From the IMG/VR virus record IMGVR_UViG_3300027754_000042: a DNA stretch of 64,000 nucleotides. One strand, written 5' to 3'. Position numbers and translations under genes: made by a program. This DNA comes from a virus. Shown here piece by piece: positions 1,068-54,491 of the stretch; within the stretch, counting starts at the first letter, position 1; the number at the start of each line of letters is the position of its first letter. The notes under the pieces were generated by a model. It worked only from the letters and a program-made list of their open reading frames with translations. It did not search any database and had not been told where the DNA came from.

Positions 1068-1837
1068 ACACCGCTAAAATTATTGCTATGACAGAACCGA
1101 AGATTTGGACGGATGCACCTGGTGATCCTCAGAGGCTTTCGGTTGATGAGTTTATCGCATACGTGGCCCGCGTGAGTAATCCATCTAACCAGAATAACTC
1201 ACTGACAGCTTCAAAGCTTTTGAAGTACCTTGCGAAGCATAAACATTGGTCACCTTTTGAGATGGTTGATGTGGTGATGGAAATCAATACCACCCGTGAT
1301 ATTGGTAGACAGATCCTGCGTCACCGTTCATTCCGTTTTCAGGAGTTCAGTCAACGCTATGCCGATCCCACGAAAGACATGGGGTTCGTTACCCGTGAAG
1401 CCCGTCTACAAGACACAAAAAATCGACAGAACTCAGTTGAGATTTCAGATGATGTAACCTACGACTCGCCTATGTATGAACGTCATTATGATCCAGATGG
1501 CAATCTTACAAAAGAATCGGTTTTATATGAAAAAAGAAATCTTAAAGAAACTTGGTCCGCCTATCAAAAAAATACTACCGATGCTGCAACCGCCGCATAC
1601 AACTGGGCCATCGAAAATGGAATCGCAAAAGAGCAGGCTCGTTCTGTATTGCCTGAGGGACTTATTCTTAGTCGGATGTATATGGCTGGTAGCCTTCGCA
1701 GTTGGATCCATTATTGCCAAGTAAGAACAGACGCAAGCACTCAGAAGGAACACCGTGAGATTGCTATGCAGGCCTGGGATCAGATTACAGACGCATTCCC
1801 ATCGCTCAAAGAAGTACTGGCATCCCTTGACATATAA
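1064..1837 (+). CDS. thyX: Flavin-dependent thymidylate synthase ThyX
   Basis: HWSPFE, RQILRHRSFRFQEFSQRY (ThyX RHRx7SxR motif), EQARSVLP, TQKEHR. Confidence 0.95.
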   Translation: MNTAKIIAMTEPKIWTDAPGDPQRLSVDEFIAYVARVSNPSNQNNSLTASKLLKYLAKHKHWSPFEMVDVVMEINTTRDIGRQILRHRSFRFQEFSQRYADPTKDMGFVTREARLQDTKNRQNSVEISDDVTYDSPMYERHYDPDGNLTKESVLYEKRNLKETWSAYQKNTTDAATAAYNWAIENGIAKEQARSVLPEGLILSRMYMAGSLRSWIHYCQVRTDASTQKEHREIAMQAWDQITDAFPSLKEVLASLDI

Positions 1838-1840
1838 ATA
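1833..1840 (+). promoter_or_regulatory. T4-type late promoter TATAAATA, 5 nt upstream of the csgF ATG
   Basis: Exact T4 gp55 late consensus; gp33 is encoded in the window. Confidence 0.75.
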
Positions 1841-1845
1841 GGTGC

Positions 1846-2286
1846 ATGAGAAAGCTTTTAGTAGCTTTGTTATGTGTGGCAGCAATGCCGCTATATGCGA
1901 CCGAACTACAGTTCAATTTTAAAAGCCCCGCCTTCTCAGGTGTGGGCTTTTCTTCGCATGTCCTGACCATTGAGAATCTGGAACAGACCAGACGCCAAAA
2001 GATCATGGACGACAAGGTAGCAGCAGCTTCTAAGGCCGCATCGGATGCTAAGAATACGAACCTTGCGAAGTTTATCAATAACCTCGAGAGCCGCGTATAT
2101 GCTACACTCTCGCAGAAGATAGCCGAGCAACTGTTCTCCGACAACGGTGCCACATCTGGCACATTTAGCATAGCAACCAACAATGTCCAATGGTCATCTG
2201 ATGGTTCACAGATTACATTACGAATAACCGACGCAGCTGGTAGCGTCACAGAGGTTGTGGTTCCCTACGGGAGTTTAGCATGGTAA
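1846..2286 (+). CDS. csgF: Curli assembly protein CsgF-like
   Basis: Signal peptide followed by ELQFNFKSPAFSG (CsgF N-terminal F-x-F-x-x-P-x-F-x-G motif); immediately upstream of csgG. Confidence 0.85.
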   Translation: MRKLLVALLCVAAMPLYATELQFNFKSPAFSGVGFSSHVLTIENLEQTRRQKIMDDKVAAASKAASDAKNTNLAKFINNLESRVYATLSQKIAEQLFSDNGATSGTFSIATNNVQWSSDGSQITLRITDAAGSVTEVVVPYGSLAW

Positions 2287-3080
2287 AGATTGGTATGGTA
2301 TTGGTAGGCCTACTGTTGGCTGGTTGCTCGCCAACGCTTATGTCAAAGGATGTGATTGAAGAGGTAGCAGACGCGCCAGAAATCATTATGAACAAGCGGT
2401 TCAATGAGTTGGCTAGTTTGAGAGGTGTGGATGGATCCATCATTCCTATCGCGGTCTACCGCTTTCCAGATATGACGGGTCAACGCAAGCCCGCTACCAA
2501 CTTTGCCAGCTTGAGTTCCGCAGTGACGCAGGGTGCAGAGGTGTTCCTGATAAAGGCTCTCCAGGACGCCGGTAGGGGTCGGTGGTTTCAAGTGGTAGAG
2601 CGGGCGTCGCTTGAAAACCTCGTGAAGGAACGCCAGCTCATTCGTAGCCAACGTGAGCTATACGAGAAGGATCAAGCAAAGCCGCTTACACCATTGACCG
2701 TCGCAGGTATTATGATTGATGGTGGCATTGTTGGCTTTGATTCAAACATTGGCACTGGTGGTATTGGCGCACGATTCCTTGGCGTTGGGGCCAACCAAGA
2801 GTACCGTAAGGATGAAGTCACGGTGGTTCTGCGTTTGATATCCATAAACACAGGCGAAGTTCTGTTGTCCACTGGATCATCCAAGACTATTCTAAGCACC
2901 AGCGCAGGTGCGAATGTGTTTAAGTTTGTTGATGCGGGTACGAGGTCTGTCGAGTTTGAAGCTGGGACAACAGCGAATGAACCTACAACATATGCAGTTA
3001 GAATAGCAATAGAAGCCGCAGTGGTCGATATGATAAAAGAGGGAGCCAAAAAGAAGCTCTGGAGTATCAAGAAGAGGTAA
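2280..3080 (+). CDS. csgG: Curli secretion channel lipoprotein CsgG
   Basis: Lipobox LLAGC; AVYRFPDMTGQRKP, SSAVTQGA, WFQVVER, LENLVKERQLIR, EVLLS, NEP motifs of CsgG. Confidence 0.93.
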   Translation: MVKIGMVLVGLLLAGCSPTLMSKDVIEEVADAPEIIMNKRFNELASLRGVDGSIIPIAVYRFPDMTGQRKPATNFASLSSAVTQGAEVFLIKALQDAGRGRWFQVVERASLENLVKERQLIRSQRELYEKDQAKPLTPLTVAGIMIDGGIVGFDSNIGTGGIGARFLGVGANQEYRKDEVTVVLRLISINTGEVLLSTGSSKTILSTSAGANVFKFVDAGTRSVEFEAGTTANEPTTYAVRIAIEAAVVDMIKEGAKKKLWSIKKR

Positions 3081-3085
3081 ACAAA

Positions 3086-3763
3086 ATGAAACGTACAAGA
3101 CTGGCATTTTTGTCATTCTTGGTTATGCTTCAATATGCAAACGCCGCGAGCAATAGTGTGTATGTAGACCAAATCGGTAGTGGTTCTACAATTTCTATGA
3201 CTCAGACTGGCAACTCGAACGTGATTGGAAATACTGCCGACAAAGCAATATTCAACGGGCAGAATAACACTGTCACGATTGACCAGATTGGTAACACCAA
3301 CCTAATGAGCATCAATGTTCAAGGTGATGGCGTAACCGCGTCTTCACTTGTTACTGGTGATAATAACACCATCAACATGCAATGCGGTGTCAGTGGCACA
3401 TGCACTGGTTCAACATTAAACAACACCATCACAGGCGATAACAATACGATCACGCAGAAGGCCGAGGGGTTCACGATATCAAACGTGACGGTAAACACAG
3501 ACAACAACACCGTAAACATAGAGAATGATTCCAGCGCAGTCGCGGGTGCGAAGAGTACGGTTCTAATTGACGGTGGTGGTGGCAATAGTGTCAACATCAT
3601 TCAGACAGGCGTAGCATCTACGAATGGACATGAAGCCGATGTGAATATCTTAGGTGCAACAAACACTGTAGATATAAAGCAAGGTGGCGGTGTTGATTCT
3701 AAGGTCATTTCTACAATCACTGGTTCTGGCAATACTCTGCTTATTAAGTCCAACCACAACTAA
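3086..3763 (+). CDS. Secreted curlin-like repeat protein (CsgA/CsgB-like beta-solenoid)
   Basis: Signal peptide; repeated N-x-(V/I)-x-I-x-Q-x-G-x-x-N units (NSVYVDQIG, NTVTIDQIGNTN, NSVNIIQTG, NTVDIKQGG). Confidence 0.75.
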   Translation: MKRTRLAFLSFLVMLQYANAASNSVYVDQIGSGSTISMTQTGNSNVIGNTADKAIFNGQNNTVTIDQIGNTNLMSINVQGDGVTASSLVTGDNNTINMQCGVSGTCTGSTLNNTITGDNNTITQKAEGFTISNVTVNTDNNTVNIENDSSAVAGAKSTVLIDGGGGNSVNIIQTGVASTNGHEADVNILGATNTVDIKQGGGVDSKVISTITGSGNTLLIKSNHN

Positions 3764-4793
3764 GTCTGAAGTTGGTAAGGTCACAGAGCAAACAGGCCCA
3801 GCAGAAATAAAGCGTGATGCTAACTTGATTTCCAGCGCACTATCCAGTGGCGTTGAGATGAAAGATACCATAACGACTGCGAACGGGAAAACTGGTATCA
3901 CATTCCAAGATGATACCAAAGTCCAGATAACGGAGCACAGCCGCCTTGTCATTGACAATTTTGTTTACGACGGTGAAAAGAAAACTGGCAAGCTTGGCAT
4001 CAAAATGGCGCTCGGCACTATCAAATATGCATCCGGGCAAATTGCTAAATCAGATCCGCAACAAGTCATGGTGGAAACACCAACAGCAACAATCGGTGTC
4101 CGCGGAACTGATTTCTCAGGTACCGTCGATGAGATTGGTCGTTCTACTATTATTTTGCTTCCTTCTTGCCCTACTGGTTGGCGAAATATTGAACGCGACT
4201 GTGTGGTTGGTTCCATTTCAGTAACGACGGATATGGGCACTATCTGGTTGACTAAGCCATTTGAGACCGTCAATGTGCAGACCAGTATGAGTACACCAAA
4301 ATCCAGCATTTTGAATTTGAATCTGGATCAGATAAATAATATGCTTATCGTAGCACCAGCAAAACCTGTCGTGCGCGAGCAACCAGTTGAGCGTATCGCA
4401 AACGTATTAGACGCAGACTTACTTGGTATTGATTTTCTCAAATACAGCGAACTTGAAAAGAACTACCTAACAGAGTACAACAAACTAGATCGCAACTTTC
4501 TTGACAGTGATTTTCTACTAAACTTTCTAGACTTATCGAACTCGCAGATGCTAACGAATGAGCTTGCAGAGTTCAATGCATTACTACCTAAATATAACGC
4601 ATCGACAGGCCTAAAGTATTTTGTTGAGCAGGATAATGTGACACTCTACCGTGAAACATACAACTCATATATGGAATTGACTGTAGCAACTACGCATAAC
4701 ATGACATTGAATTTGACTCAGGATGGTGGTTCAGTGACGCAGATGGTAAACAGTTCTGGAACCACAACGATAACTATAAAGCAGGGCAACTGA
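3684..4793 (+). CDS. FecR-domain periplasmic protein with a curlin-like C-terminal strand
   Basis: N-terminal hydrophobic segment; DTITTANG, FQDDTKVQITEHS, VETPTATIGVRGTDF (FecR signature); ends TITIKQGN. Confidence 0.85.
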   Translation: MAVLILRSFLQSLVLAILCLLSPTTTKSEVGKVTEQTGPAEIKRDANLISSALSSGVEMKDTITTANGKTGITFQDDTKVQITEHSRLVIDNFVYDGEKKTGKLGIKMALGTIKYASGQIAKSDPQQVMVETPTATIGVRGTDFSGTVDEIGRSTIILLPSCPTGWRNIERDCVVGSISVTTDMGTIWLTKPFETVNVQTSMSTPKSSILNLNLDQINNMLIVAPAKPVVREQPVERIANVLDADLLGIDFLKYSELEKNYLTEYNKLDRNFLDSDFLLNFLDLSNSQMLTNELAEFNALLPKYNASTGLKYFVEQDNVTLYRETYNSYMELTVATTHNMTLNLTQDGGSVTQMVNSSGTTTITIKQGN

Positions 4794-5056
4794 TGAAAAC
4801 ATTAATCGCGCTCCTTCTAATGACAACGCCTGCGCTATCGCAGACAGTAAATAATGCAACCGTGAACATCATAGGATCCTTACAGAATGTTAGTATTACT
4901 CAGTCTGGTGCTAATCATAGTGCTACCCTTAATTTCACTGGCAATAATATCTCGGCTATTGTATCTCAATCTGGAAACACGCCTCAGTCTTTTAGTCTTA
5001 GTGTTACTTGTGGTCTCAATTGTCCCAATAGTCCTTATATCGTTAGCCAATACTGA
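4793..5056 (+). CDS. Small secreted curlin-like protein
   Basis: Signal peptide; NVSITQSGANH and IVSQSGNTP repeats; C-terminal Cys pair. Confidence 0.65.
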   Translation: MKTLIALLLMTTPALSQTVNNATVNIIGSLQNVSITQSGANHSATLNFTGNNISAIVSQSGNTPQSFSLSVTCGLNCPNSPYIVSQY

Positions 5057-7113
5057 TGGAAAAGCTAGTCAAGTTTCTTACAAGCACATGGATGGTTGCT
5101 ATCAGCGCCTGTCTCCTGTTGACATTGTATGCAATCAACCCAAGCGCGATTCAAACGCTTCAGCTAAAGACCTTTGATTATCTTATCACTTCTCTGGAGA
5201 AGAAACAATCAGAAGAGATTGTAATTGTTAACTTTGGTGAGAAGTCGGTTGAGAAGTTTGGTCAGTGGCCATTTGACAGACGAGATATCGCAAAGACAAT
5301 CAATAAACTAAAAGAGAACGGCGCTTCGGTAATCGTTGCGCCTATTCTATTCTCTGAAAAAGACAGAGCAGGTGGCGATGATGAACTGGCAAAAACTCTT
5401 GAAGGTGTTGTCCTCGCACAAACACCTACTACTCAAAACAGTAAGCCCGACTCGGTTCGTCGTGGGTTCGCTGCTATCGGTCCTGTTGATCCTGCTAGGG
5501 TTGTCTATCGTTGGCCTGGTGGATTACGCCCTCTTGACAAGTATGCCGAAGTTGCCTCAGGCGTTGGTGTGGTCGCAACAATCTCTGAATTGGACGGTGT
5601 GGTTCGCCGTATGCCTCTACTTGTCAATATTGCATCTGGTCTTTATCCTAGCATTCCTTTGGAGACCATTCGTGTCGCTGCTGGAGACCCTAGCTTTCAA
5701 GTTAAGACGAACGAAGGTGGAATAGAAGCTGTAAGAGTCCCAGCTTTTCCACCAATCTCAACCGACGAGCGCGGGCGCATCTGGTTATCTTGGAATACCA
5801 AATTTGATACGCTAGAAGCAACCGAGATAGACGCTCGCGTGAAGGACAAGATTGTTATTCTTGGTCTAACGATTGAAGGCGTTGGTGGTATCATAGCAAC
5901 ACCAATCGGTGAGAAGTGGGCCCATGAGATTCAAGCGCAGACACTCCAAACACTGGTAGACGGAACTTCTATTTCTCGCCCCAACGTAGGAAGGCTAATA
6001 GAAGGAGCACTACTAACCACCATGCTACTACTATTGCTCCATATAGTTCCAAGACTGACGGTAGTGATGACAGTTCCATTCTACGCTTTCATTGTGGTTG
6101 GATTATCAGCAGCGAGTTATTATTTATTCAAAACAGAGCTACAACTATGGGACGCAAGCTATATCGTATTGTCTATAACTGTTGTATATGGGCACTTGGT
6201 ATTCAACAATTTCGCTCGCGAGTTTAGACTAAAGCAACAAATTAAAAAGCAGTTCGGTACTTACCTTTCACCTGCACTGGTCGAGAAACTACAGAAGAAC
6301 CCAGAACTATTGTGCTTGGGAGGAGAGACCCGTGAGCTATCTATCATGTTTACTGACGTTAGGGGCTTTACGACTATCTCTGAACATTACGGTAATGACG
6401 TACAGGGCCTTACGAAAATAATGAATCGCTACATGACAGCGATGACGGCTAAGATAATTCAGAACGATGGCACACTAGATAAGTATATCGGTGACGCGCA
6501 GATGGCATTTTGGAATGCACCACTTGATGATGCGGACCATGCGAAACACGCAGTTAAAACAGCATTGGAGATGCTAGATGATTTGGAACGATTTAACAAA
6601 GAGATCGCCACTGAGGGTGTTCCACCCTTTGGTATGGGTCTTGGGATTAACACAGGCTCCGTTGTGGTTGGCAATATGGGTAGTAGTCAACGCTTTGATT
6701 ATACTTGCCTCGGTGATACTGTCAATCTAGCATCGCGCTTGGAAGGGCAGAGCAAGCCATATCATGTGAAGATGGTAATTGGTCCTAAGACTTATGAATA
6801 TGTGAAGGATGAATATCTATGCGTGGAACTTGATTGCCTTGCTGTGAAAGGTAAGAGCGAAGGTGTGAAGATATACACCATCGTTGAAAAGATTGGTATC
6901 AACAAAGCGTATGCTCGCACACACGCAGACTTCATCAAATACTATCGCGCACAGGAATGGCACCAATTGGAAAATTATTTCCATGTGCTTGAACCAGCAT
7001 TCAATGATGAACTAAGAGAATATTATGGAATGATGAAAGAGCGCGTGGAGGACTATAAAAAGAATCCCCTACCTAAGGATTGGGATGGCGTATTCCGTAC
7101 CAACAGCAAGTAA
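5056..7113 (+). CDS. CHASE2-domain membrane adenylate cyclase (class III)
   Basis: CHASE2 motifs GQWPFDR and DGVVRRMPL; three TM helices; catalytic FTDVRGFT, DKYIGDA, YTCLGDTVNLASRLE. Confidence 0.93.
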   Translation: MEKLVKFLTSTWMVAISACLLLTLYAINPSAIQTLQLKTFDYLITSLEKKQSEEIVIVNFGEKSVEKFGQWPFDRRDIAKTINKLKENGASVIVAPILFSEKDRAGGDDELAKTLEGVVLAQTPTTQNSKPDSVRRGFAAIGPVDPARVVYRWPGGLRPLDKYAEVASGVGVVATISELDGVVRRMPLLVNIASGLYPSIPLETIRVAAGDPSFQVKTNEGGIEAVRVPAFPPISTDERGRIWLSWNTKFDTLEATEIDARVKDKIVILGLTIEGVGGIIATPIGEKWAHEIQAQTLQTLVDGTSISRPNVGRLIEGALLTTMLLLLLHIVPRLTVVMTVPFYAFIVVGLSAASYYLFKTELQLWDASYIVLSITVVYGHLVFNNFAREFRLKQQIKKQFGTYLSPALVEKLQKNPELLCLGGETRELSIMFTDVRGFTTISEHYGNDVQGLTKIMNRYMTAMTAKIIQNDGTLDKYIGDAQMAFWNAPLDDADHAKHAVKTALEMLDDLERFNKEIATEGVPPFGMGLGINTGSVVVGNMGSSQRFDYTCLGDTVNLASRLEGQSKPYHVKMVIGPKTYEYVKDEYLCVELDCLAVKGKSEGVKIYTIVEKIGINKAYARTHADFIKYYRAQEWHQLENYFHVLEPAFNDELREYYGMMKERVEDYKKNPLPKDWDGVFRTNSK

Positions 7114-7117
7114 GATA

Positions 7118-7558
7118 TTATACTTTCTTATTTTTCTGGTTTGGCTCTTGCTTGGTATTTTGCTCTGGGTTCGTTATGGGCCCATCATCTATTTCGACAG
7201 CATTGTTATGATGCTTGGCTGCTAGTTCTTCAGCAGCTTTGACCTGCTTATCAGCCGCTTCTAGTTCGCGAGCTTGTGCTTTGGCTGCAGTCTCAACATC
7301 GTGCAAGTGACGTTCTGATTCAATCTCTTTGCCACGCAACTGAAGAACGATATTGATTTTCTGGTTCAAACGGATAAGGTCATTGTCGAGCATACGAATG
7401 CGGTCGATCAAAGCAATAAGAACGGTGCTTGCTTCACTTGTGACTGGTTTGATTTCTTTGGTTGCCCATGTCCATACATAGTAAATCATGTACCCCATGC
7501 CACCAGCAGCGACAATAGGAAAGCCATATTTGTTAATTAGATCAGCAATACCATCCAT
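7118..7558 (-). CDS. Small membrane protein with coiled coil (YvrJ/holin-like)
   Basis: N-terminal GFPIVAAGGMGYMIYYVW TM segment followed by an amphipathic helix; paralog of 9157..9438. Confidence 0.6.
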   Translation of the reverse strand: MDGIADLINKYGFPIVAAGGMGYMIYYVWTWATKEIKPVTSEASTVLIALIDRIRMLDNDLIRLNQKINIVLQLRGKEIESERHLHDVETAAKAQARELEAADKQVKAAEELAAKHHNNAVEIDDGPITNPEQNTKQEPNQKNKKV

Positions 7559-7563
7559 GTTTA

Positions 7564-9033
7564 TTACCTTTCGTAAACCTCATTGCCTATGACAAGCATA
7601 TCAATGGCATTTGTTTCATATTCATAAAGAGCATTTGCAGAAAATGCTGCAATTGGATTTCCAGCGTTATTCAAACTCGTATTTAGAAGAACTGGACAAT
7701 TAGTTAGCTCATAAAATTTTTCAAGCAATTGCCGAAATTGCCCAGTTGTTACGGTTTGAAATCTGCAAGTACCATCAACATGTGTTATTGATGATAGATT
7801 ATCTTTCTGTACTTTACCCACATATAGCATATAAGGATTTTCATAATCCACATCAAAATACTCTTTTGCAAATTCTGCTAATATGGAAGAACCAAATGGT
7901 CTAAAAGATTCTCGATTCTTTACCCGATTGATTTTGTCTTTGCCATTTACAATTCTAGGATCCATAAGTATGGATCTGTTACCCAATGCTCTAGGTCCAA
8001 TCTCTCCATTACCCTGATACCAAGCAACTATTTTACCATTGGCTAAAGCATTTACAACTCTATCTAATTGTAAGCATTCGGATGGAGGAGATTCGTCTGA
8101 TTGGCAAAAAGGAAAATTGCTCATACTTAACCTAGGTAGATTATGTTTTCTGCGTAGAAATTCCATGCCACCCAAAGATAAACCTTCATCGCCAGAATAC
8201 GGCATCACTACAAGATTTGGATATTTTTCTTTGAGTTTGGAATTCCATATCACATTCTGAGCGACACCACCACTATAACCTATTCGTTCATTTGGTTTAG
8301 CGTATTTTTCAAATAGCTCTAAAACCATTTCTCCATATCGTTCATGGACAGTTCTTAACCAATTTAATTTTTTGGTATATCCTTCAAAAGTGTACATCAC
8401 AGGATTTATATTATAGATATCGTATTTTCTTAATAGCTTCAATAGTTCATTATCAATGTTACCATAAGATTGTGCTCCCATTAACTTACCAGCCAAATCT
8501 ATATCGTCGCCTTTTATATTTAACTTATGACCTATGTGTGTTAAACTGAAACCTATAGACCCAGCTATATCTATATAACCACAATCAAGAAACTGTTCTC
8601 CACGATATACGGACCAACTCTTCAATGATCCTTTACCATCTATATTAATGCTGATATCAACGTCTTCTAAAAGAGAAACACTAAGAGCGTGTGCGTAATG
8701 ATGGTCTATAAATTTTGTTCCGTCGGTAGATTCACAATATATGTGCTTTATTAGATTTTTAAAATTTGATTGCGGCTCAACTGTATTAGAGTCAGCAGAA
8801 ACAAAAATTACATCATCAACATCGTCTCTACTAACACCCCATATTTTTTTTGTTATATCATCACAATCGTTAACAGATAATTTGTGGTGTTTTATCTGAA
8901 ACATTCTTTCGCTTTTAAAATAACGAATAGTTTTTCCATCAAAATAGCTGATATTCGAATCATGTGCAGCATAACGTCTAATAGTAGGTGGTGGTGTTTC
9001 GTACGGCCAAACATGATATGACAAAAATTTCAC
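7564..9033 (-). CDS. Carbamoyltransferase (NodU/CmcH/TobZ family)
   Basis: HDSN, DHHYAHA, IDGKG, AGKLMG, SGGVAQNV, GDEGLSLG, EIGPRALGNRSIL, KNRESFRPF, THVDGTCR, LLNTSLN; GTG start at 9033 behind GGAG (track start 9039). Confidence 0.92.
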   Translation of the reverse strand: MKFLSYHVWPYETPPPTIRRYAAHDSNISYFDGKTIRYFKSERMFQIKHHKLSVNDCDDITKKIWGVSRDDVDDVIFVSADSNTVEPQSNFKNLIKHIYCESTDGTKFIDHHYAHALSVSLLEDVDISINIDGKGSLKSWSVYRGEQFLDCGYIDIAGSIGFSLTHIGHKLNIKGDDIDLAGKLMGAQSYGNIDNELLKLLRKYDIYNINPVMYTFEGYTKKLNWLRTVHERYGEMVLELFEKYAKPNERIGYSGGVAQNVIWNSKLKEKYPNLVVMPYSGDEGLSLGGMEFLRRKHNLPRLSMSNFPFCQSDESPPSECLQLDRVVNALANGKIVAWYQGNGEIGPRALGNRSILMDPRIVNGKDKINRVKNRESFRPFGSSILAEFAKEYFDVDYENPYMLYVGKVQKDNLSSITHVDGTCRFQTVTTGQFRQLLEKFYELTNCPVLLNTSLNNAGNPIAAFSANALYEYETNAIDMLVIGNEVYER

Positions 9034-9035
9034 GA

Positions 9036-9176
9036 TCAACTCTCCCTAAAAATTTTTTGCGCCAAGCTTTTATTTTTGGTTATCAAAAATACCCAATCAT
9101 TTAGAAGTACGGTATAATATGATATACCGTTTCTGGTTCTTTCTATCACTTCAATCTTAATCCCTTCGTGCGTCAT
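9036..9176 (-). CDS. Small hypothetical protein (46 aa, MTHEGIKIEVIERTRNGISYY...)
   Basis: Hand-translated ORF filling the gap between 9157..9438 and the carbamoyltransferase; below the track cutoff. Confidence 0.45.
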   Translation of the reverse strand: MTHEGIKIEVIERTRNGISYYTVLLNDWVFLITKNKSLAQKIFRES

Positions 9177-9438
9177 TCTTACCATCCGCTCTTGCGATAC
9201 GATCCACATCTGGCTTCACACCAAGAGCATTCGAAACCAAAGTGTCAATACGAATAACATCGTGGTTCATTGTCTTTACTCGATTGTCCAGCGCGGTGAT
9301 GATGCCAGATAGACCCTTGACACTGGACATAACACCTGCTAGAATGAATTTCATTGTGAGGAATACGAAATAGCCACCCGCACACGCAGCCGCGATAGGA
9401 AAGCCAACTTCTGCAACTAATTTGAACCATTGATCCAT
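9157..9438 (-). CDS. Small membrane protein (YvrJ/holin-like)
   Basis: VGFPIAAACAGGYFVFL TM segment and ALDNRVKTMNHDVIRID; RBS AAGGAG; paralog of 7118..7558. Confidence 0.65.
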   Translation of the reverse strand: MDQWFKLVAEVGFPIAAACAGGYFVFLTMKFILAGVMSSVKGLSGIITALDNRVKTMNHDVIRIDTLVSNALGVKPDVDRIARADGKNDARRD

Positions 9439-9456: not shown

Positions 9457-9468
9457 TATTTATAAATA
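9457..9468. promoter_or_regulatory. Overlapping divergent late promoters (palindrome TATTTATAAATA)
   Basis: TATAAATA on + at 9461-9468 and on - at 9457-9464, between divergent genes. Confidence 0.75.
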
Positions 9469-18157: not shown

Positions 18158-18184
18158 GGGGGAACTTCGGTTCCCCCTTTTTTT
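18158..18184 (+). terminator. Intrinsic terminator with a cUUCGg tetraloop
   Basis: GGGGGAAC-TTCG-GTTCCCCC followed by a T7 run, between convergent genes. Confidence 0.92.
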
Positions 18185-20258
18185 ATTGATGATTTTCCAT
18201 CTTCTGTTTACCAAAAAATCTATTCAAGAATGGATTAGTTGCTGAGAGAGGTATGTTTGGTGTGACGTTAGTATCACCACCTGCGCTCTTATTCATCACA
18301 TTATAATCATTCATATTTGTCTGTAAGATTTGACCTAACTTACCTTTATAACCAGCCGACTCGTCTCCCTCTGGTTCAATCTTAGTTGGTGCTGTTGCAG
18401 CAGGTTTTGCTGATGGTGCGCCAGCCCCTGGTACAGCTGGTGGGTTCTCAGCATTAGCTTCAGGTCCACCACTAATAGCAGCACCAAATGCTTTTGGGCC
18501 TGCTCGCATACCAGCCGCCGCTGGTGTTGCACCAGCAGCCACTTTAGCGTTCTGTTCAGCGCGTTGTTCCTCTTTTGGTTTATATCTTACATCATTAGCT
18601 CTATCTTTATCATCTATACCTTGCATGTTTAACATCGCATCACGCGCAGCATTAGAATCTACGGTGGCTGTTATACCTTTTGCATGTGTTGCACCCATAG
18701 CATCTTCATCTTCTTTTTTATATTTTGCTTCCATGATGTTGGATGCATTTTGCATATTAGCCGAGCGAACATCTCTATCACTAAGACCAGTATCACCGCC
18801 AGGTAATCCGTCTGTTGGTAATGTATGACTACCACCACCTCGCCCTAACATGCGAGGATCAGTATGGTCGCCACCACCACGACCAATAGCGCCGGTTGTT
18901 TCACCTGTAGTGTGCCCACCACCACGTCCGAACGTAGCCGGATTTGTCGCGTCTTGAATAGATTTAGCAGCGGCTTTCTTTGCTTCTACTGGTGCACCAG
19001 GTGCAGCCGCAATAGCTTTTAAACCAGCAAGTTCTTTTTGTCTCTGTTGATCCGCAGCAAAGAACATCGCAGTAGCACCAGAATCTCCGTTTCTTTCCAT
19101 GTCCTGTTGTTGTTGAAACATAGCTTTAGATTTAGCGTGTGGATCAGGCGGTGCCATTATAGGTGCACCTGTAGTTGCAGCAGGCGCAGTTTCCGCAGGT
19201 CTTCTCATTGGTTGTGGTGCAGCCGCCGATTGTCTAGCAGCACCAAATGCATCGGTCTCACCACCTATTGACATATCTGTTGGTGCAGCTGGCGCTGCTG
19301 GAGTTGACGCAGCTGGCGCTGCTGGAGTTGACGCAGCTGCCTTTGATGGATCGTTAGCATCGCTACCTGGTGTCTTATATAAATCTTCCGCACTAGCTTC
19401 GCGTGTACTAGACCCTGTCGTTCCAGCAGCACTAGTAGAAGCAGCGGCAGGACCTGCACCACCTTCAGGTGCACCAGATCCACTTTTTGCTTTCGAACCA
19501 GCAGCCTCAGCAAATGCACCAGTTTCACCAGACATTGACATATCGGTTAATTGTGCTCCCTGTGGTGCACCTATTGGTGGTTGAGCTTTATTATATGATG
19601 CCATTGCGCCATCAATTTCAGATTGATCTGGGTTTTCATTTTTAAATTGCTTCCATAATTTATACAATTCAATAGCATCACCGATTGATAATGCAAGACC
19701 AATCGCAACGCCAATCCACCCAATACCCGTAGCAGCAAGAATTGCCATTGTTGCTAACTTTTTACCGATTTTACCGAGTAATAGTGGCGCAGCAATTTTT
19801 AAAAATGAAATGAATGCGTCCCACGTGGAATCGCCACTCGAAGGAATAGCGTCCGCTGCCGCAGCTGGTGCCGCAGCACCTAATGCAGCACCACTGATAG
19901 TAGCACCAGCACCACCGGTAAGCGATGGTGTTATAGCAGCTAGACTTCTGGTAAACTCTGTACGAGACGCAGCCAGTTCTTTATTCAATGTTCTAAAACG
20001 GTCTGTCATATCTCTGTCAACCTTAGCAACAGTCTTTAGAACGCTTGCGATGCTTTTCATAATCTCGTTGGATACTTTTTGCAACTGCGTTAGTTGAATA
20101 TTCAAACGCGACATAGAGTCCGCAAGGTCTGCCATTGAACTCTTGTTAGTCAATAGCGACGATGATGCTTTCTGCATATTACTATCAGCAGACTTGGTAC
20201 TAAATGTTATTGCTGGTCGTTCAAATGGTGTACCAGTTACGAGTTTTGAAATAGCCAT
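18183..20258 (-). CDS. Tape-measure/baseplate-hub-like virion protein (gp29-like position), low complexity
   Basis: N-terminal coiled coil, hydrophobic segments, Ala/Pro/Gly-rich repeats; downstream of gp26/gp51. Confidence 0.5.
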   Translation of the reverse strand: MAISKLVTGTPFERPAITFSTKSADSNMQKASSSLLTNKSSMADLADSMSRLNIQLTQLQKVSNEIMKSIASVLKTVAKVDRDMTDRFRTLNKELAASRTEFTRSLAAITPSLTGGAGATISGAALGAAAPAAAADAIPSSGDSTWDAFISFLKIAAPLLLGKIGKKLATMAILAATGIGWIGVAIGLALSIGDAIELYKLWKQFKNENPDQSEIDGAMASYNKAQPPIGAPQGAQLTDMSMSGETGAFAEAAGSKAKSGSGAPEGGAGPAAASTSAAGTTGSSTREASAEDLYKTPGSDANDPSKAAASTPAAPAASTPAAPAAPTDMSIGGETDAFGAARQSAAAPQPMRRPAETAPAATTGAPIMAPPDPHAKSKAMFQQQQDMERNGDSGATAMFFAADQQRQKELAGLKAIAAAPGAPVEAKKAAAKSIQDATNPATFGRGGGHTTGETTGAIGRGGGDHTDPRMLGRGGGSHTLPTDGLPGGDTGLSDRDVRSANMQNASNIMEAKYKKEDEDAMGATHAKGITATVDSNAARDAMLNMQGIDDKDRANDVRYKPKEEQRAEQNAKVAAGATPAAAGMRAGPKAFGAAISGGPEANAENPPAVPGAGAPSAKPAATAPTKIEPEGDESAGYKGKLGQILQTNMNDYNVMNKSAGGDTNVTPNIPLSATNPFLNRFFGKQKMENHQ
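19285..19339. repeat. 24-bp tandem repeat (~2.3 copies) encoding ASTPAAPA
   Basis: GCAGCTGGCGCTGCTGGAGTTGAC twice plus GCAGCTG. Confidence 0.9.
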
Positions 20259-22618
20259 TAAAATAACCTTCTAAGAGCAGAACCAATTTGTGCACCAATC
20301 ATAAATGGTGATATCATTGCTTCGGGACGATATGTTGGTCCTGCCATCTGTTGAAATATATTGGTTCTAATATCATTCGTGACGGTTCTATTGATAATGT
20401 TTGTATCAACTGGTGGACACGCACACGCACGATTCACAGCATAATCTTGTGAAGCGCCGGCCATTCTACTACCTCCACCACCACCAGGTGCACCTGCATT
20501 ATAATCTGGTGCAGGTGCACCAGGAACCGATGTCGAAGGTGCTTGATAATTACTACCACCTGCCAATTGAATATGCACCGGATCACTACCACCAAATGGA
20601 AACGACACACCATACTTAGCAAGAATACCTTGAAACGCTGATCCTAATCCAGGATTAATATCCAAAGCTTGGCCTTTTCCGTGCGAAGAACCTCTACCAC
20701 TTCCTGGAACTGTATACGATTGCCCACCAACCGTAACAACTTGAGTGTTTTGAGGTCTTGCGGGTGTATAGATACCTGGTTCACGAAGAATATTACCGCG
20801 AACCCAAAGCTGTGCTTGATATGCGTCATCGCGATAAGCAGAATTGATTCTAACAGGACCACCATATTCTCTAGCCGCTTGATAAAATCTTTTCATTAGT
20901 TCGGGATCTACTTTGGATACATCGACATTTCCTGTTACGTTGTTAGGCTTAGATGTATTACCCAAACTCGCAAGCGAAGTCTGCACTTGTTGCTGCGATG
21001 GTGCACCTGTCGTATCTAGTGGGCGCACAGTACCAGCTTGCTGCATAGGCGCAAGACTAAATTTCTGATTGAATGCTGCTACTTTTCCTTCTAGTTCTTT
21101 TTTCTTTGCTTCATTAGCTTCACCGAGTCTAGCACCAGGACCTTTTTTCGCTGCAAGATCGTTTATATTTTTTAGCATCGTTACGTTGGCTTGATGCGTT
21201 GCAGCTTCTTCTGGTGTCGCAGAAGGTCTACGTTGGGGTGCACCTGTAGTTGCGGCTGGAGTTGTTGGTGCAGTGGTTGGCCCACCAGATGGTGCTGCAG
21301 GTGCAGCTGGTGTTGTTTGTTGAGCAGCAGCAGTTTGAACATTACCGCCCATTTGCTGGTATGTTTTCATCCATGACGCTTGATATGCTTGTGGTGTTAA
21401 ACCTTTATTGACACCCAGTGCTTTCGCAGACATGCGACCTTGAGCATTACCAGTATACCAAACAAGTGGAATTTTTGATACGTCATTATTATTTTGACGA
21501 AGAACTTCAGAAATATAAACATCTGCTACTTTATCTTGTACATCTGGTGGAGCCATAAATGCTCGTGGATATTTTTGTATATCTACGCCAGCTGCCTGTG
21601 CGCGTGAACGCCATGTGCCATCAATAAACTGATAAGCACCAGATGCACTAGATGATTTTGAACGGATGTTATAGTTACCATCAGATTCGCGTTTTTTTAT
21701 CGTTTCAAGGATTTGTTTATTGCTACCAGATGCTGGCGTATTGGGCCACATTCCACCTGGTGGCGCTTCACCACTAGGACCACCGCCGGGACCACCGCCG
21801 CCTGGACTAGTTGCAATCAAAGCAGCGCCGCCAGCAATTGCTGCGCCTGCTACCGCAAGACCTATACCTACTCTCGTATTTTTAGCAGATCGAGATTGCT
21901 GCATTCTCTGCGCCCGCGCAAGAACTGCGGTGCTTCGCGAAGCTTTGAGTGATTTGCGCCCAGCGCCTTTACGCCCAGGCTTTGGTGCTACAGAACCACC
22001 AGCTTGTGTTGGTGCTTTAGTGCCAGTCAACGTCTCAATAACTTTATCTTGAAATTCTTGGTTATTTTGAATCATGGTACGGATGACAGTTTCATTTTGC
22101 TCTGTCATCTTTTGAACAACGCCAGCCATCTGTTCAAACAGTTTTGGATATGATTCCATTATCTTCTGGTTTGTGGTAATCAGATTGGTAGCGATAGATA
22201 CGTTTCGATTGAATTGCTTGATAACCTTGCTAGGTACACCTGTTGCTTTAGTTGCGGCCTTTATGCCTGGTGCTTTTGGCATTGCAGCAGCAATTGCTTC
22301 ACGTTTTTCTTGCGGTGGAAAATATGCAGCAATCTTATCTGGTGCTGGTTTGCCTTGATCGTCAAGGATAGAACCATCTGGTGCATAGTAGTATTTGGTG
22401 TTCTTCAATACGCCAGCAATTTGAGCGTTATTCTTTTTCTTTCTCTTAGGTGCTGCTATCACAACAGCAGCTTCTTCAACGGGAGGTGGTGCAGCAAACA
22501 TCGCGGAAATTCGCGCAGACGCGGGAATGCCGTTCTCATCCACAACCGTACCATCACTCTTGTAATAGTAATCGGTGTTTCCTAAACTGCCTGCTACTGG
22601 TCCTGGCTTTTTAGCCAT
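20258..22618 (-). CDS. Tail-associated protein with a lysozyme-like (transglycosylase) domain and an M15-type peptidase domain
   Basis: RESDGNY...ASGAYQFIDGTW...QD (lysozyme-like); INSAYR...Q...SSHGKGQALDI...DPVHIQL (M15 Zn ligands H, D, H). Confidence 0.75.
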   Translation of the reverse strand: MAKKPGPVAGSLGNTDYYYKSDGTVVDENGIPASARISAMFAAPPPVEEAAVVIAAPKRKKKNNAQIAGVLKNTKYYYAPDGSILDDQGKPAPDKIAAYFPPQEKREAIAAAMPKAPGIKAATKATGVPSKVIKQFNRNVSIATNLITTNQKIMESYPKLFEQMAGVVQKMTEQNETVIRTMIQNNQEFQDKVIETLTGTKAPTQAGGSVAPKPGRKGAGRKSLKASRSTAVLARAQRMQQSRSAKNTRVGIGLAVAGAAIAGGAALIATSPGGGGPGGGPSGEAPPGGMWPNTPASGSNKQILETIKKRESDGNYNIRSKSSSASGAYQFIDGTWRSRAQAAGVDIQKYPRAFMAPPDVQDKVADVYISEVLRQNNNDVSKIPLVWYTGNAQGRMSAKALGVNKGLTPQAYQASWMKTYQQMGGNVQTAAAQQTTPAAPAAPSGGPTTAPTTPAATTGAPQRRPSATPEEAATHQANVTMLKNINDLAAKKGPGARLGEANEAKKKELEGKVAAFNQKFSLAPMQQAGTVRPLDTTGAPSQQQVQTSLASLGNTSKPNNVTGNVDVSKVDPELMKRFYQAAREYGGPVRINSAYRDDAYQAQLWVRGNILREPGIYTPARPQNTQVVTVGGQSYTVPGSGRGSSHGKGQALDINPGLGSAFQGILAKYGVSFPFGGSDPVHIQLAGGSNYQAPSTSVPGAPAPDYNAGAPGGGGGSRMAGASQDYAVNRACACPPVDTNIINRTVTNDIRTNIFQQMAGPTYRPEAMISPFMIGAQIGSALRRLF

Positions 22619-30889: not shown

Positions 30890-32755
30890 ATGGCAGATCA
30901 ACTCCAATTAGACTACCAGCTAAGAGCCGTTTTAGGGCAGACGATAAATCTTGTTGCCGGCACTGAATATGTGATATATGGCACACCGCACAAGTATATG
31001 GGTACTGATCTAATTCATCAACAAGCTACAAGATTGATGAACGACCATCCAGATTTATTCAATGCGTCTGTTGCGCTTGGTATGATGCGCGATCCTCTTG
31101 GGTATAGACCTCCACCATTTCAATTATCACCTAATGTTGTCGCTGGTCTAGCGGCTGCGTCAGCCGTTGGTAAGCTTGCGGATCTAGCAGGAATGGGAAA
31201 AGCAATAAGCGATCTTGCTCCTGGTCTTAGTTCTGCGATGGAAGGTTTGACAGGGCAAATGGGGTCCTTGATGAAGTCTTTACCGTTCACTAAACTTGGT
31301 GCAATTGGTTTGACATTGCCTGGGAACATTCTCGCAACTAAAGCTATATTGACAGCCGCAATTGGAGGACCATTTTCAGCGATAGCAATGGCCATGAAAG
31401 GTAGTCTACTAGCCGATGTTGTCAAAGCTGCCGAATCTGCTGCTGGTGCGCTTGGTGCCGCTGTAAACCTTGCAAGTCAAGTCGGTGGTTTGGCTAAAGC
31501 TATGAGTTCTGGAAATCCTGTTGCTATGGCAGGTGTGGCTGCTGGGATTGCATCTCAATTCCCTATGATTAATCCAAATGCAATTGCTGGGCAAATGATT
31601 TCTGGTGCTTTGTCTGGCGCTGGTTTTGATATCGCATCAAAGATCCCAAACATGAGCATGGTAGGCGGAATTATGAACATGCTTCATATACCAGGCAAGC
31701 TCCCTACAAAGGATGCACCTAAGCCCATCAAAACTGCTGCACCACCAAAGCCATTAAAACCAGTTGAGCTGAAAAACTTATTTGCTGAAGGCGCAGCCGC
31801 TGGTAGTATTTCAGATTTGACTAAACCATTATCACAACTCATGGGTATTGCTGCTACGGTTGCGGGTGCTGTTGGTGTCGCAAGCATGGTCGCGCATAGC
31901 GCGTCGGCCACATCATCTGGTCGTCAAAAACTAACAGGGAATGCAAATACTGTAAACTGGGGATCTAACGGGTACACACGCGATCCATACGTGGATGCTA
32001 TTACTGCTCGTCGTATGGCACTATCATCATCAATTGAAAGACACACCAAAGAACTAAACGTGATGACAGCTGACCCATATAATATTCTTTATTCATTGCC
32101 TTATTCAGAATTGGTGCGCCGTTATCCTCAAATTAGACCAAATACTCCTGTTGCTCAAGCCTTGCAGTTTATCAAGACAGCGCAAACGGTTGCATTGTTG
32201 GCTGGTATTACCGTTGACATCGTTTCGAGTATCGGATCTTACAATTTTGAGTCTGGAGGTGTTATAGATAGTGGTGCGGCTAAATCTAGCACCAGCACGA
32301 CACCAGCATTACTTGATGATGCGTATGGATCTTTGAGAGAACCAACGCTACAAGATCGTACAAATCCAGCCACATTCCGTGGTGCACAAGTACCTAACCC
32401 ACAAGCACCATACGATTCTAGCGTAGGTGAAGCTGGGATCTATGGGCGTGGCGGAGGCCATTTAACAGGTGAGTCATTTGAACTTACAAAATCTCAAAGA
32501 GAACAGCAATTTGGTTTACCTGAACCTGTAACTGGGGCAGTATCTGAATTTGATGTTGGCGCACTTCGTTACGATGATCCACAAGCTTGGGTTGAGACTG
32601 TGGAGAATAAGATTACAGAAGAAGTTGTATCTGGCAAGTCGTTCTCTGCTTCTGATGGCTATGATAGCTACACTGGTTCTGAGGGTAATTATGATTATAG
32701 CGACCAACAAGGTGATAATAGTGTAGGTGAACCTTATCCTGATTATAGCGAATGA
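30890..32755 (+). CDS. Hypothetical Ala/Gly/Met-rich structural protein with an acidic tail
   Basis: 621-aa ORF in the late baseplate operon between gp5-C and gp25. Confidence 0.6.
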   Translation: MADQLQLDYQLRAVLGQTINLVAGTEYVIYGTPHKYMGTDLIHQQATRLMNDHPDLFNASVALGMMRDPLGYRPPPFQLSPNVVAGLAAASAVGKLADLAGMGKAISDLAPGLSSAMEGLTGQMGSLMKSLPFTKLGAIGLTLPGNILATKAILTAAIGGPFSAIAMAMKGSLLADVVKAAESAAGALGAAVNLASQVGGLAKAMSSGNPVAMAGVAAGIASQFPMINPNAIAGQMISGALSGAGFDIASKIPNMSMVGGIMNMLHIPGKLPTKDAPKPIKTAAPPKPLKPVELKNLFAEGAAAGSISDLTKPLSQLMGIAATVAGAVGVASMVAHSASATSSGRQKLTGNANTVNWGSNGYTRDPYVDAITARRMALSSSIERHTKELNVMTADPYNILYSLPYSELVRRYPQIRPNTPVAQALQFIKTAQTVALLAGITVDIVSSIGSYNFESGGVIDSGAAKSSTSTTPALLDDAYGSLREPTLQDRTNPATFRGAQVPNPQAPYDSSVGEAGIYGRGGGHLTGESFELTKSQREQQFGLPEPVTGAVSEFDVGALRYDDPQAWVETVENKITEEVVSGKSFSASDGYDSYTGSEGNYDYSDQQGDNSVGEPYPDYSE

Positions 32756-52387: not shown

Positions 52388-53299
52388 ATCTTCGTATTTC
52401 TTGACCAATTGTTTTTGTCTTGCAATTTCGGTTCGAAGAAACTGTTCGTTGTTATTACACTCAAATACCAATTTTAATTTGGCAATAACATCGCGAACGG
52501 CATCTGACGCGCAAGCTTCATGTACTGATTTTTTAATCTCGTCAATAAATTTAACATTGGCTTTGGGTGCGTATAGAAGCAATGAAGACGCATAGTTAAA
52601 ATCTTTGATGCCTAATTCAAGCCCAGTTGGCACGTTTGGGTATTGAGAATTCCTATTGGGCAATGAGATAGCCAACAATTTTAGACCAGGCGTGTCGATA
52701 GGATTTTGAACCGAGTAGTCTGCTTCACCCATAAGAATGCTCTTGGTTATTTCTCCAGGTGTTTTGTACTGAATCATTTTGACGTTGTTAATATCGTACT
52801 GTTTACGAAAGATTGCGTCGAGAAGCTTTGGTGAAACAGCTTGAACCGTGGCACCATTAAACACTTCCTTCTTTCCCTTCATATACTTAACGAATTGGTC
52901 TAATGAATCTACCTTCAAATCAGGAGAAACCATTATAGCGTTTGGTACCAAAGCAATAAGTTCAATCGGAACAAAATCAGCCTCACGATCAATTGTAGAA
53001 TTGTATATGATTGGATTGAGTGTGAAATTGGAAATTGTACCGGCTACAATAGTGTTTGCGCCTAATTTAGCTTCGGCTAATGCTTTACCATCAGCCGCTT
53101 CGCCACCAGAACCTGGAATAGTACCTAATCTAAAATCATATTTTTCATCAAGCTTTTTGTTCAACTCGGTAATGAGTGTCGCTGTAACAAAAGCTGTTGG
53201 GTCGTTAGCAGGAAATCTTGTGTATACGTTTATGCGCTCTTCGCCACATGCGCCAAATGCTGCGAGAGAAAAGCAAATCAATAGTAGTTTACGAAGCAT
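52373..53299 (-). CDS. TctC/Bug-like periplasmic substrate-binding protein (divergent)
   Basis: Signal peptide; IPGSGGE, DFVPI, LKLLAIS...R...PNVPT..ELG. Confidence 0.75.
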   Translation of the reverse strand: MLRKLLLICFSLAAFGACGEERINVYTRFPANDPTAFVTATLITELNKKLDEKYDFRLGTIPGSGGEAADGKALAEAKLGANTIVAGTISNFTLNPIIYNSTIDREADFVPIELIALVPNAIMVSPDLKVDSLDQFVKYMKGKKEVFNGATVQAVSPKLLDAIFRKQYDINNVKMIQYKTPGEITKSILMGEADYSVQNPIDTPGLKLLAISLPNRNSQYPNVPTGLELGIKDFNYASSLLLYAPKANVKFIDEIKKSVHEACASDAVRDVIAKLKLVFECNNNEQFLRTEIARQKQLVKKYEDSIKQ

Positions 53300-54491
53300 G
53301 ATTTAACTCCAATTTTCCGATAAGGTAAGGTTGTGATCTTAACATTGAGTAGAATTGATATTTTTTATTTATCTTTTCAAATCGTTTTTCTTTTGATTCT
53401 CTATATTCTTTCAAAAATCCTTCAGTCGTATGAGTTCCAACTACAGTCTCATACAATTTAAATTCTGGGTTTTTTGTTGTTGGTTTAGGTCCAGCATACG
53501 TCTGCGGATTCCAATCTGGATATATCATCGAACTAAAACTTCTTTCCAGCATAATAGCTGAGGAATGAATAGGTTTTACCGAGTTATGATTTTTAAGCTC
53601 TTCTCTACTTTGAGTAAAAAATTCGTAGTATTTTCTATCAGATTCTAGTCGCCTTTTAATGATATGAGATTGCTTGATTGGAATCAAAGGCATATCTCTT
53701 GACCAAAAAAAATCTTCTGTAGTATAAGTTGCTGAAAATTCGCGTAGATTGAGCGATGCTGTTGTGACCATTGTTTGGTCAGTAAAATGAAAAAATAACG
53801 AGTTGTTTTTGATATGCAAAGCAGGTTTTTCCATACCGCGCACGATGCACATAGAGTTTTTGTCTTTTGATCTTTCATAGTTGGTTGTATAAAATAATTG
53901 CCACCATTGATTGTTTGGTCCCATAGATGATGAGATTCGTGGGTATTGATGTTTGATTCTACCATTATTTCCAATGATTGTATATTTGCCTGTTGAAAGC
54001 TGATCGTGCAGAAGATCGGATGCATCAACGATAGTGATTTTTGTTTTTGGACTTAATTCCAACACTTTCTTGAGCATTGGTAAAGCAGCAAGTTCGTACT
54101 CAAGCAAAATTTGAAATTCGTTGTCTCTCAACATATCTGCTCGGTCAAGATTTTTTGTCATTTTATGAAGATTTGCAACTTGGATTTCGTCAATGAATAT
54201 ATTGTTTTTTAGAAATGACCATAGAACTTGTGTTGAATCGCTACCACCAGAGAAAGCAAGAACCACATACTTGTACTTGTCTCGTATCTGTTGGGCTCTG
54301 ATTTTGTATAGTAGACCAATATCGAAATCTGGTTCTGCCATCCAATCGCATTTTTCAAACACATCATTATTGTAATAGTATTTAAGTTTTACATCATAAT
54401 CTTGACGAATTAGCGCATAATCAAATGCGTCTTCGCGAGTAAAAAATCGTTTGTCGTCGTATACATAAAACCCACAATGCAGATGATTCAT
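53289..54491 (-). CDS. PP-loop (adenine nucleotide alpha-hydrolase) protein
   Basis: RAQQIRDKYKYVVLAFSGGSDS, IFIDEI, GMEKP, KQSHII. Confidence 0.75.
   Translation of the reverse strand: MNHLHCGFYVYDDKRFFTREDAFDYALIRQDYDVKLKYYYNNDVFEKCDWMAEPDFDIGLLYKIRAQQIRDKYKYVVLAFSGGSDSTQVLWSFLKNNIFIDEIQVANLHKMTKNLDRADMLRDNEFQILLEYELAALPMLKKVLELSPKTKITIVDASDLLHDQLSTGKYTIIGNNGRIKHQYPRISSSMGPNNQWWQLFYTTNYERSKDKNSMCIVRGMEKPALHIKNNSLFFHFTDQTMVTTASLNLREFSATYTTEDFFWSRDMPLIPIKQSHIIKRRLESDRKYYEFFTQSREELKNHNSVKPIHSSAIMLERSFSSMIYPDWNPQTYAGPKPTTKNPEFKLYETVVGTHTTEGFLKEYRESKEKRFEKINKKYQFYSMLRSQPYLIGKLELNHAS

Follow-up and report, generated by a model that had tools for sequence, protein, structure and literature searches.

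A curli-type pore, a FecR-like protein and a CHASE2 cyclase in a conserved late module of aquatic phages, a candidate envelope-spanning sensor

We analyzed a 64,000-nt stretch of viral DNA (IMG/VR record IMGVR_UViG_3300027754_000042, hereafter the window), which is part of a T4-like myophage with thyX, phoH, helicase loader, single-stranded-DNA-binding protein, baseplate, terminase and tail sheath genes, and whose terminase is ~55% identical to those of HTVC008M and cyanomyophages. The subject is a cassette of six open reading frames (ORFs) spanning 1846-7113 on the plus strand, which encode CsgF, CsgG, a first curlin, a FecR-like protein, a second, small curlin and a CHASE2-type adenylate cyclase, and which overlap by 7, 80, 1 and 1 nt and leave one 5-nt gap (Table 1). 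A first-pass annotation of the window had described six tightly coupled or overlapping ORFs here, and their coordinates, strand and Pfam identities bore this out. It had placed the limits of the module at 1833-7113; the six genes stood, whereas the end at 7113 had to be moved, since two minus-strand genes for small membrane proteins, A and B, belong to the module too. This pair is a constant part of the module, making it an eight-gene unit. On balance, we favor the reading that the unit is a late-expressed, envelope-spanning sensor that would drive late production of cyclic AMP (cAMP). If this is right, a secretion pore lets phages sense the exterior of the host, and cAMP is their means of acting on the signal.

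Table 1. Coordinates of the module features in the window (+ and -, strand)
Feature	Position	Strand	Basis or remark
Late promoter, T4-type, TATAAATA	1833..1840	+	csgF-cyclase operon; motif enriched 5' of csgF in relatives
CsgF, 146 aa, signal peptide	1846..2286	+	Pfam PF10614 8e-19; alignment
CsgG outer-membrane pore lipoprotein, 266 aa	2280..3080	+	PF03783 2e-53; lipobox Cys16
Curlin 1, 225 aa	3086..3763	+	Curlin_rpt above cut-off; solenoid model
FecR-like exported protein, 369 aa, GTG start	3684..4793	+	Pfam FecR 1.5e-10
Curlin 2 (mini-curlin), 87 aa	4793..5056	+	Curlin_rpt above cut-off
CHASE2-transmembrane-class III adenylate cyclase, 685 aa	5056..7113	+	CHASE2 3e-40, Guanylate_cyc 1e-22
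Small membrane/coiled-coil protein B, 146 aa, GFPI motif, phrog_18771	7118..7558	-	Paralog of A
NodU/Nol-like carbamoyltransferase between small membrane genes B and A	7564-9039	-	
Small membrane/coiled-coil protein A, 93 aa, GFPI motif, phrog_18771	9157..9438	-	Weakly YvrJ-like
Second late promoter, TATAAATA	9457..9464	-	5' of the small-membrane-protein operon converging on the cyclase

The late promoter proposed for the cassette was confirmed at 1833-1840 and by enrichment of its motif in relatives: TATAAATA occurred at 9 sites in the window versus 4 expected, and TATAAAT was found 5' of csgF in 22/66 related loci against a background of 1.6%. A scan for sigma-70 promoters gave only chance-level matches.

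Co-occurrence had been named beforehand as a test able to refute a joint function, and wherever the flank of a related viral locus was long enough, csgF/G were accompanied by FecR and the cyclase. In IMG/VR, csgG, a curlin and FecR were present in all cyclase-anchored loci with a full upstream flank (36/36), and FecR and the cyclase in all csgG-anchored loci (30/30); both small membrane genes were found in 23/23 wide-flank loci for either anchor, and 47/47 protein A-anchored loci with at least 6 kb downstream carried the cassette, the viral loci counted here being close relatives rather than independent cases. The same 6 of 50,697 GenBank phages carried CsgG, the full cyclase and protein A, and the pelagimyophage Mosig, which is in this set, matched none of the three. 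Ocean and freshwater viromes contain the module in abundance, with >500 confirmed matches in each scan; CsgG and the cyclase group with viral sequences in trees, and the neighbors of the module are T4-like genes.

As a gene set, the cassette is already published, and what is added here is the membrane pair, the FecR-plug reading, the capped curlin 2 and the bacterial copies. Wittmers 2022 (PMC9599517) described the whole cassette with FecR, the second curlin, the cyclase and an upstream 'histidine kinase' (HK), and proposed aggregation, defence against superinfection by curli fibres, and import; Zaragoza-Solas 2020 (PMC7029224) reported csgF/G and proposed sibling capture, and Buchholz 2022 (PMC9004378) suggested that the genes act in lysis timing, and observed no clumping in Melnitz infections. 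The first-pass annotation, which spoke of csgF/csgG in SAR11 myophages as genes without an assigned function, understated the prior work. The CHASE2 domain is mentioned in none of the three papers. This viral type VIII secretion (curli) module in HTVC008M (KC465899) and Melnitz (MZ577097) has the identical order csgF-csgG-curlin-fecR-curlin-cyclase and no CsgE, with ~44-55% identity to the present CsgG and ~43% to the cyclase; curlin 2 has 87 aa here compared with 338 and 441 aa in these isolates.

The small membrane proteins A and B are paralogous (HHalign 98%), and each has one membrane segment and a coiled coil in addition to the GFPI motif. Within the module, protein A is conserved best, with identities that often reach 80-98% where those of CsgF are 33-80%. 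Relative to the cassette, the pair occurs in at least five arrangements, among them upstream of it, downstream in convergent orientation, and between fecR and a cyclase gene that is inverted. In HTVC008M and Melnitz its homologs lie upstream of csgF, at the published 'HK' gene positions, whereas here the two genes are relocated downstream on the opposite strand and split by the carbamoyltransferase gene. Judged by position and size, the pair probably represents the published 'histidine kinases'; neither protein matched HisKA or HATPase, and no kinase domain was found. Hints of YvrJ were obtained (12/25 members, best Pfam E 0.056; ESM Atlas 0.89), together with a PHROG holin match (1.6e-4 over 21 residues), which makes a holin function a lead; no relative of solved structure was found for the pair. 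A fusion of protein B with CsgF was considered and rejected, as the longer B forms are sporadic read-throughs and the joined CsgF keeps its own signal peptide.

Several further genes were observed within the module. The carbamoyltransferase spot (7564-9039) is an insertion site, because a 97%-identical relative (L053) has the small pair adjacent without the carbamoyltransferase. At L061:2653-4554 (minus strand), and again in 13 related sequences, the space between the membrane pair and the cyclase is occupied by a gene for a secreted protein of 633 aa, with a barrel-like C-terminus whose last residue is Phe; this protein has no Pfam or PDB match and is possibly an extra outer-membrane receptor. 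Recurring passengers within the module of related phages are a metallophosphoesterase, a DUF4337 membrane protein, a fatty-acid desaturase and a gamma-glutamyl cyclotransferase-like protein (L287:15471-16220, L326:10463-11047, L049:10941-11648, L058:10994-11383).

Regarding the pore, CsgG matched E. coli CsgG structures over its full length (5e-69), and its lipobox, which had been read from the window alone, was borne out by a Cys16 that is invariant in relatives. CsgF has the conserved N-terminal pore-binding motif and an extended C-terminus of helical/beta character. The first-pass annotation had seen no csgE in the window, and CsgE (PF10627) was found in none of four near-complete relatives while the control in E. 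coli was detected; for CsgC and CsgD, likewise not visible to that annotation, there was no Pfam match among the ten proteins scanned, and no search was aimed at either. Long CsgG extensions of unassigned fold, in open frames of up to ~450-525 aa, are frequent, as in L041:3413-4771, L057:3150-4337, L126:1585-2766 and the Hyphomonadaceae loci L233-L256.

Curlin 1 was modelled as a beta-solenoid of degenerate repeats with one internal Cys pair (pLDDT 87), has six curlin motif matches and is low in Gln (4.4%). Its best fold match was CsgA R15.5 (8c50, VIA; Z 20, rmsd 8.4 over 191 residues), and Foldseek gave no significant match. It accompanies FecR in every locus with enough flank, and where a locus has both curlin genes, fecR lies between them; the curlin 2 gene is missing from some related phages. 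A conserved, disulfide-bonded C-terminal cap is common to 38 distinct curlin 2 sequences, which are 87-637 aa long, and one of the long forms carries an F5/8 type C (sugar-binding) domain. By sequence comparison, the window's curlin 2 appears as the minimal form of a disulfide-capped module with variable passengers, which fits an exchangeable tip on a capped stub better than a subunit of fibres, although fibres could still be formed.

Concerning the FecR-like protein, its gene overlaps that of curlin 1 by 80 nt, and homologs start at the same point. A hydrophobic segment at residues 1-23 (signal peptide) is directly followed by a beta domain, and no cytoplasmic anti-sigma domain precedes the membrane segment, so that a role as an anti-sigma factor was ruled out. 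The model comprises a confident N-terminal beta domain, a low-confidence acidic linker of ~77 aa (median 77 aa in relatives) and a six-strand C-terminal sheet. The N-domain matched PupR best (6ovm: Z 15.0, rmsd 2.7, 134 residues) and next the periplasmic plug by which the MpIBP adhesin is anchored in its pore of the outer membrane (5IX9: Z 7.0, under the tool's distinctive level, rmsd 2.1, 73/76 residues; by Foldseek, prob 1.0 but E 0.02). The C-terminal domain was modelled as a beta-meander that ends in a T-x-I-T-I-x-Q strand and had no match in the ESM Atlas. Of the curlin-like end ascribed to this protein in the first-pass annotation, the single terminal strand motif was therefore retained, whereas a curlin-like domain was not, profile comparison with curlin 2 giving no likeness. 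Residues ~225-300 of the linker have in many phages a roughly five-residue Leu-x-x-Asp/Asn-hydrophobic periodicity; this region is unfolded in the monomer model, and the linker may become ordered only in a complex.

The context of FecR domains in bacteria was surveyed in 400 alphaproteobacterial genomes, where 40/57 matches lay in open frames >500 aa; among the matches fetched, the domain was mostly near the N-terminus of large proteins, several of which had RTX repeats or an adjoining TolC-family gene, and some of which stood beside CHASE2 cyclases. The first-pass annotation had stated that bacterial CHASE2 cyclases often adjoin FecR proteins; FecR beside a CHASE2 protein recurred in the unrelated bacteria Sulfurovum, Coxiellaceae, rhizobia and Burkholderia, and FecR beside CHASE2 sensors has been reported before (PMC9239204, PMC5192318). 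Since this domain heads type-I-secreted adhesins in many cellular relatives and recurs beside CHASE2, we infer the following arrangement: a FecR-like domain, readable by a CHASE2 sensor, would retain an exported protein at its pore. A cellular counterpart with TolC replacing CsgG may exist at L341:3448-19001, in an alphaproteobacterial genome of 1.6 Mb, where a 921-aa protein headed by FecR is encoded together with TolC, ABC and HlyD in a type I secretion operon, and genes for a GAF-PAS cyclase and a CHASE2 cyclase flank this operon. Further FecR-CHASE2 pairings were found at L351:8633-12535 and L338:4206-10332, one being a short FecR, an OmpA-family protein and a CHASE2 cyclase, and the other a CHASE2-SpoIIE phosphatase adjoining a FecR-headed 913-aa protein.

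The cyclase had been described as retaining both metal Asps, the Lys/Thr pair and the Asn/Arg residues, and this held for 46-47 of 47 aligned sequences. The metal aspartates D434 and D480, K476 of the adenine pair, R561 and the phosphate lysine K598 were kept in 47/47, and T550, the partner of K476, and N557, which forms the Asn/Arg pair with R561, in 46/47. Complex prediction of CHASE2 with both curlins and the FecR partner gave 0.65, compared with 0.77 in a control in which CHASE2 was replaced, and was not used as evidence.

The cassette was also found in bacterial chromosomes. Four Caulobacterales metagenome-assembled genomes (MAGs; two Henriciella, two Caulobacteraceae) carry csgF-csgG-curlin(s)-fecR-cyclase among metabolic genes, with a GC content slightly below that of the flanks, and in one copy a SpdA/CpdA-like phosphodiesterase gene lies directly upstream. 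The small membrane pair is missing from all four. These copies show that lysis is not required for the core to be retained, and they mark the pair as the phage-specific addition. Such copies are rare (2/72 Henriciella genomes), and 25 other Hyphomonadaceae curli loci contained neither FecR nor the cyclase. Most of the 'bacterial' FecR matches in MAGs of unrelated taxa came with the small pair, and we regarded these as mis-binned phage contigs. In the CsgG and cyclase trees the bacterial copies form one clade placed among phage sequences; since phage monophyly was not rejected (p-AU 0.11), we do not claim transfer from phage to bacterium.

A relay from an outer-membrane receptor to a CHASE2 cyclase has been demonstrated in Sinorhizobium (PMC7529298). 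The S. meliloti NsrA-CyaK/CyaD1/D2-Clr-SpdA systems (PMC7529298, PMC13001267, PMC5498481) combine an inner-membrane CHASE2 class III cyclase with an outer-membrane component, as here, and the Campylobacterota CHASE2 cyclase-FecR-TPR-phosphodiesterase cluster (PMC9239204) pairs a FecR-domain protein with a CHASE2 cyclase, again as here; the phosphodiesterase adjoining one bacterial copy of the present module recalls both. On the other hand, the outer component of S. meliloti is a single beta-barrel receptor, whereas here it is the CsgG/CsgF/curlin assembly and the window's cassette has no outer-membrane barrel gene, and unlike with Clr, no CRP-type receptor is encoded in the phages searched. 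Compared with enterobacterial curli (CsgABCDEFG), CsgG, CsgF and curlin-repeat solenoids are common to both, whereas in the phage module no CsgE was found, the repeats are degenerate, curlin 2 is capped, and FecR, the cyclase and the membrane pair are added. The FecR protein resembles the retained type-I adhesins (MpIBP region I, LapA retention module; 5IX9, PMC5550230) in having an N-terminal beta domain, apparently of the same fold, a long linker and a distal domain, but it is Sec-exported, has only 369 aa and no RTX, belongs with CsgG instead of TolC and is coupled to a cyclase.

The first-pass annotation had read the module as an outer-to-inner-membrane relay; co-occurrence, the FecR-CHASE2 pairing and the Sinorhizobium precedent support this part, and its comparison with T4 lysis inhibition is kept as an analogy. 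Lysis inhibition in T4 involves the T holin, RI and RIII. A common logic is possible, in which a late periplasmic signal would adjust lysis time via a membrane protein; no homology was found to any part of the T4 system, and the module has in addition a second messenger enzyme. The T holin profile (PF11031) was not found, but its control set gave no match either, and RI was not searched.

From family knowledge and the conserved motifs, we propose that the CsgG/CsgF pore would export both curlins to build a short capped surface stub, with curlin 2 as its variable tip. Tentatively, the FecR-like protein would be held at the pore like a retained adhesin, its N-domain acting as a periplasmic plug, the acidic linker lying within the channel or close to it, and the C-terminal sheet docking on the curlin stub; alternatively, it might be a fully periplasmic adaptor. 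The recurrent bacterial pairing suggests that the FecR domain would control the CHASE2 domain of the inner-membrane cyclase, so that a change outside alters cAMP, with a ligand, contact, lysate of neighbors or an incoming virion as candidate inputs. Sensing of lysed neighbors would be a plausible input by analogy, because the signal to which S. meliloti NsrA-CyaK responds is free ribosomal protein uL2, which occurs in crude extracts of cells (PMC7529298, PMC13001267). The most doubtful part is that cAMP then acts via a host receptor and that the phage-only, holin-like pair links the relay to the lysis decision, although the pair is the best candidate for such a link. What the analysis shows is the genes with their motifs, folds and linkage; the signal, all contacts, the output and any lysis role are what we infer. 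In its most specific form, namely a curli pore repurposed as a receptor in which FecR is threaded through CsgG with its plug and gates CHASE2, the curlin tips sense and the pair sets lysis timing, the proposal is improbable as a whole; if true, it would amount to a type VIII 'sense-through-the-pore' system and second-messenger control of lysis in abundant aquatic phages. The redefinition as eight genes, the relabelling of what are probably the 'HK' genes, the recognition of CHASE2 and the proposed pore tether make the mechanism of the module more testable.

Several points weigh against the sensor. Besides the kinship of the viral loci, the sub-distinctive plug match and the lack of likeness between the FecR C-terminal domain and curlin 2, the FecR protein differs from type-I-secreted adhesins in having a Sec signal, the pair resembles holins only weakly, and curlin 1 is a bona fide curli-type solenoid that could polymerise. 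A cNMP-binding domain (PF00027) is absent from four near-complete related phages, and the receiver of cAMP is therefore a host protein or something unassigned. Podophage versions of the module frequently lack the cyclase (PMC9599517), so that pore and curlins can be kept without it. In one alternative, the published model, the operon is a working curli system making surface amyloid for sibling capture, aggregation or a superinfection shield, with FecR and the cyclase as a separate co-transcribed regulator. The operon does contain CsgG, CsgF and a curli-type solenoid, alphaproteobacterial curli operons likewise lack CsgE/C/D and many podophages dispense with the cyclase (both PMC9599517), and the sugar-binding passengers of curlin 2 fit adhesion. 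We nevertheless consider it unlikely, since a phage late promoter drives the operon and cAMP is not obviously required for switching it on, Gln is scarce (4.4%) in the degenerate repeats, curlin 2 is capped, no clumping was observed (PMC9004378) and FecR stands between the two curlin genes wherever both occur.

Were the module instead lysis machinery, the pair would be a holin, CsgG would breach the outer membrane and the cyclase would serve as an internal timer without outside sensing. CsgG has been suggested to act in lysis (PMC9004378), and the two membrane proteins have a late promoter, resemble holin/YvrJ weakly, are always linked to the cassette and are missing from the four bacterial copies; but bacterial chromosomes, in which lysis would do harm, retain the pore, curlins, FecR and cyclase intact, Mosig lacks matches to CsgG, the cyclase and protein A, showing that lysis can do without the module, and neither an extracellular sensory domain nor variable curlin tips would be needed, all of which makes this explanation quite unlikely. 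A nutrient pore and sensor has also been put forward (PMC9599517, PMC7029224), in which CsgG without a gate would let in iron complexes or cofactors, and FecR-CHASE2 would signal their presence to host CRP so that metabolism is retuned; this accords with the absence of CsgE in the four near-complete relatives and the oligotrophic hosts of cultured relatives. The FecR protein has no anti-sigma domain, however, and no TonB-dependent transducer or extracytoplasmic function sigma gene was found among the cassette genes or the annotated recurring neighbors of the conserved viral module, for which no dedicated search was made; late expression fits poorly and the curlins and membrane pair are left unexplained, so that we regard this explanation as very unlikely. 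That the curlins or the FecR protein are virion parts, linked to the rest by late co-expression only, would agree with the late promoter and with the frequency of beta-solenoids in tail appendages, but is extremely improbable given that all carry Sec or lipoprotein signals and that the set exists in bacterial chromosomes.

Elsewhere in the window, three large ORFs (18183-22618, minus strand; 30890-32755, plus strand; 53289-54491, minus strand) had no or only weak PHROG matches, and one of them has a short transglycosylase-like stretch and is probably a tape-measure region. The closest near-complete relative encodes ribosomal protein bS21 (G307:C1:47043-47198), which could help to assign the host.

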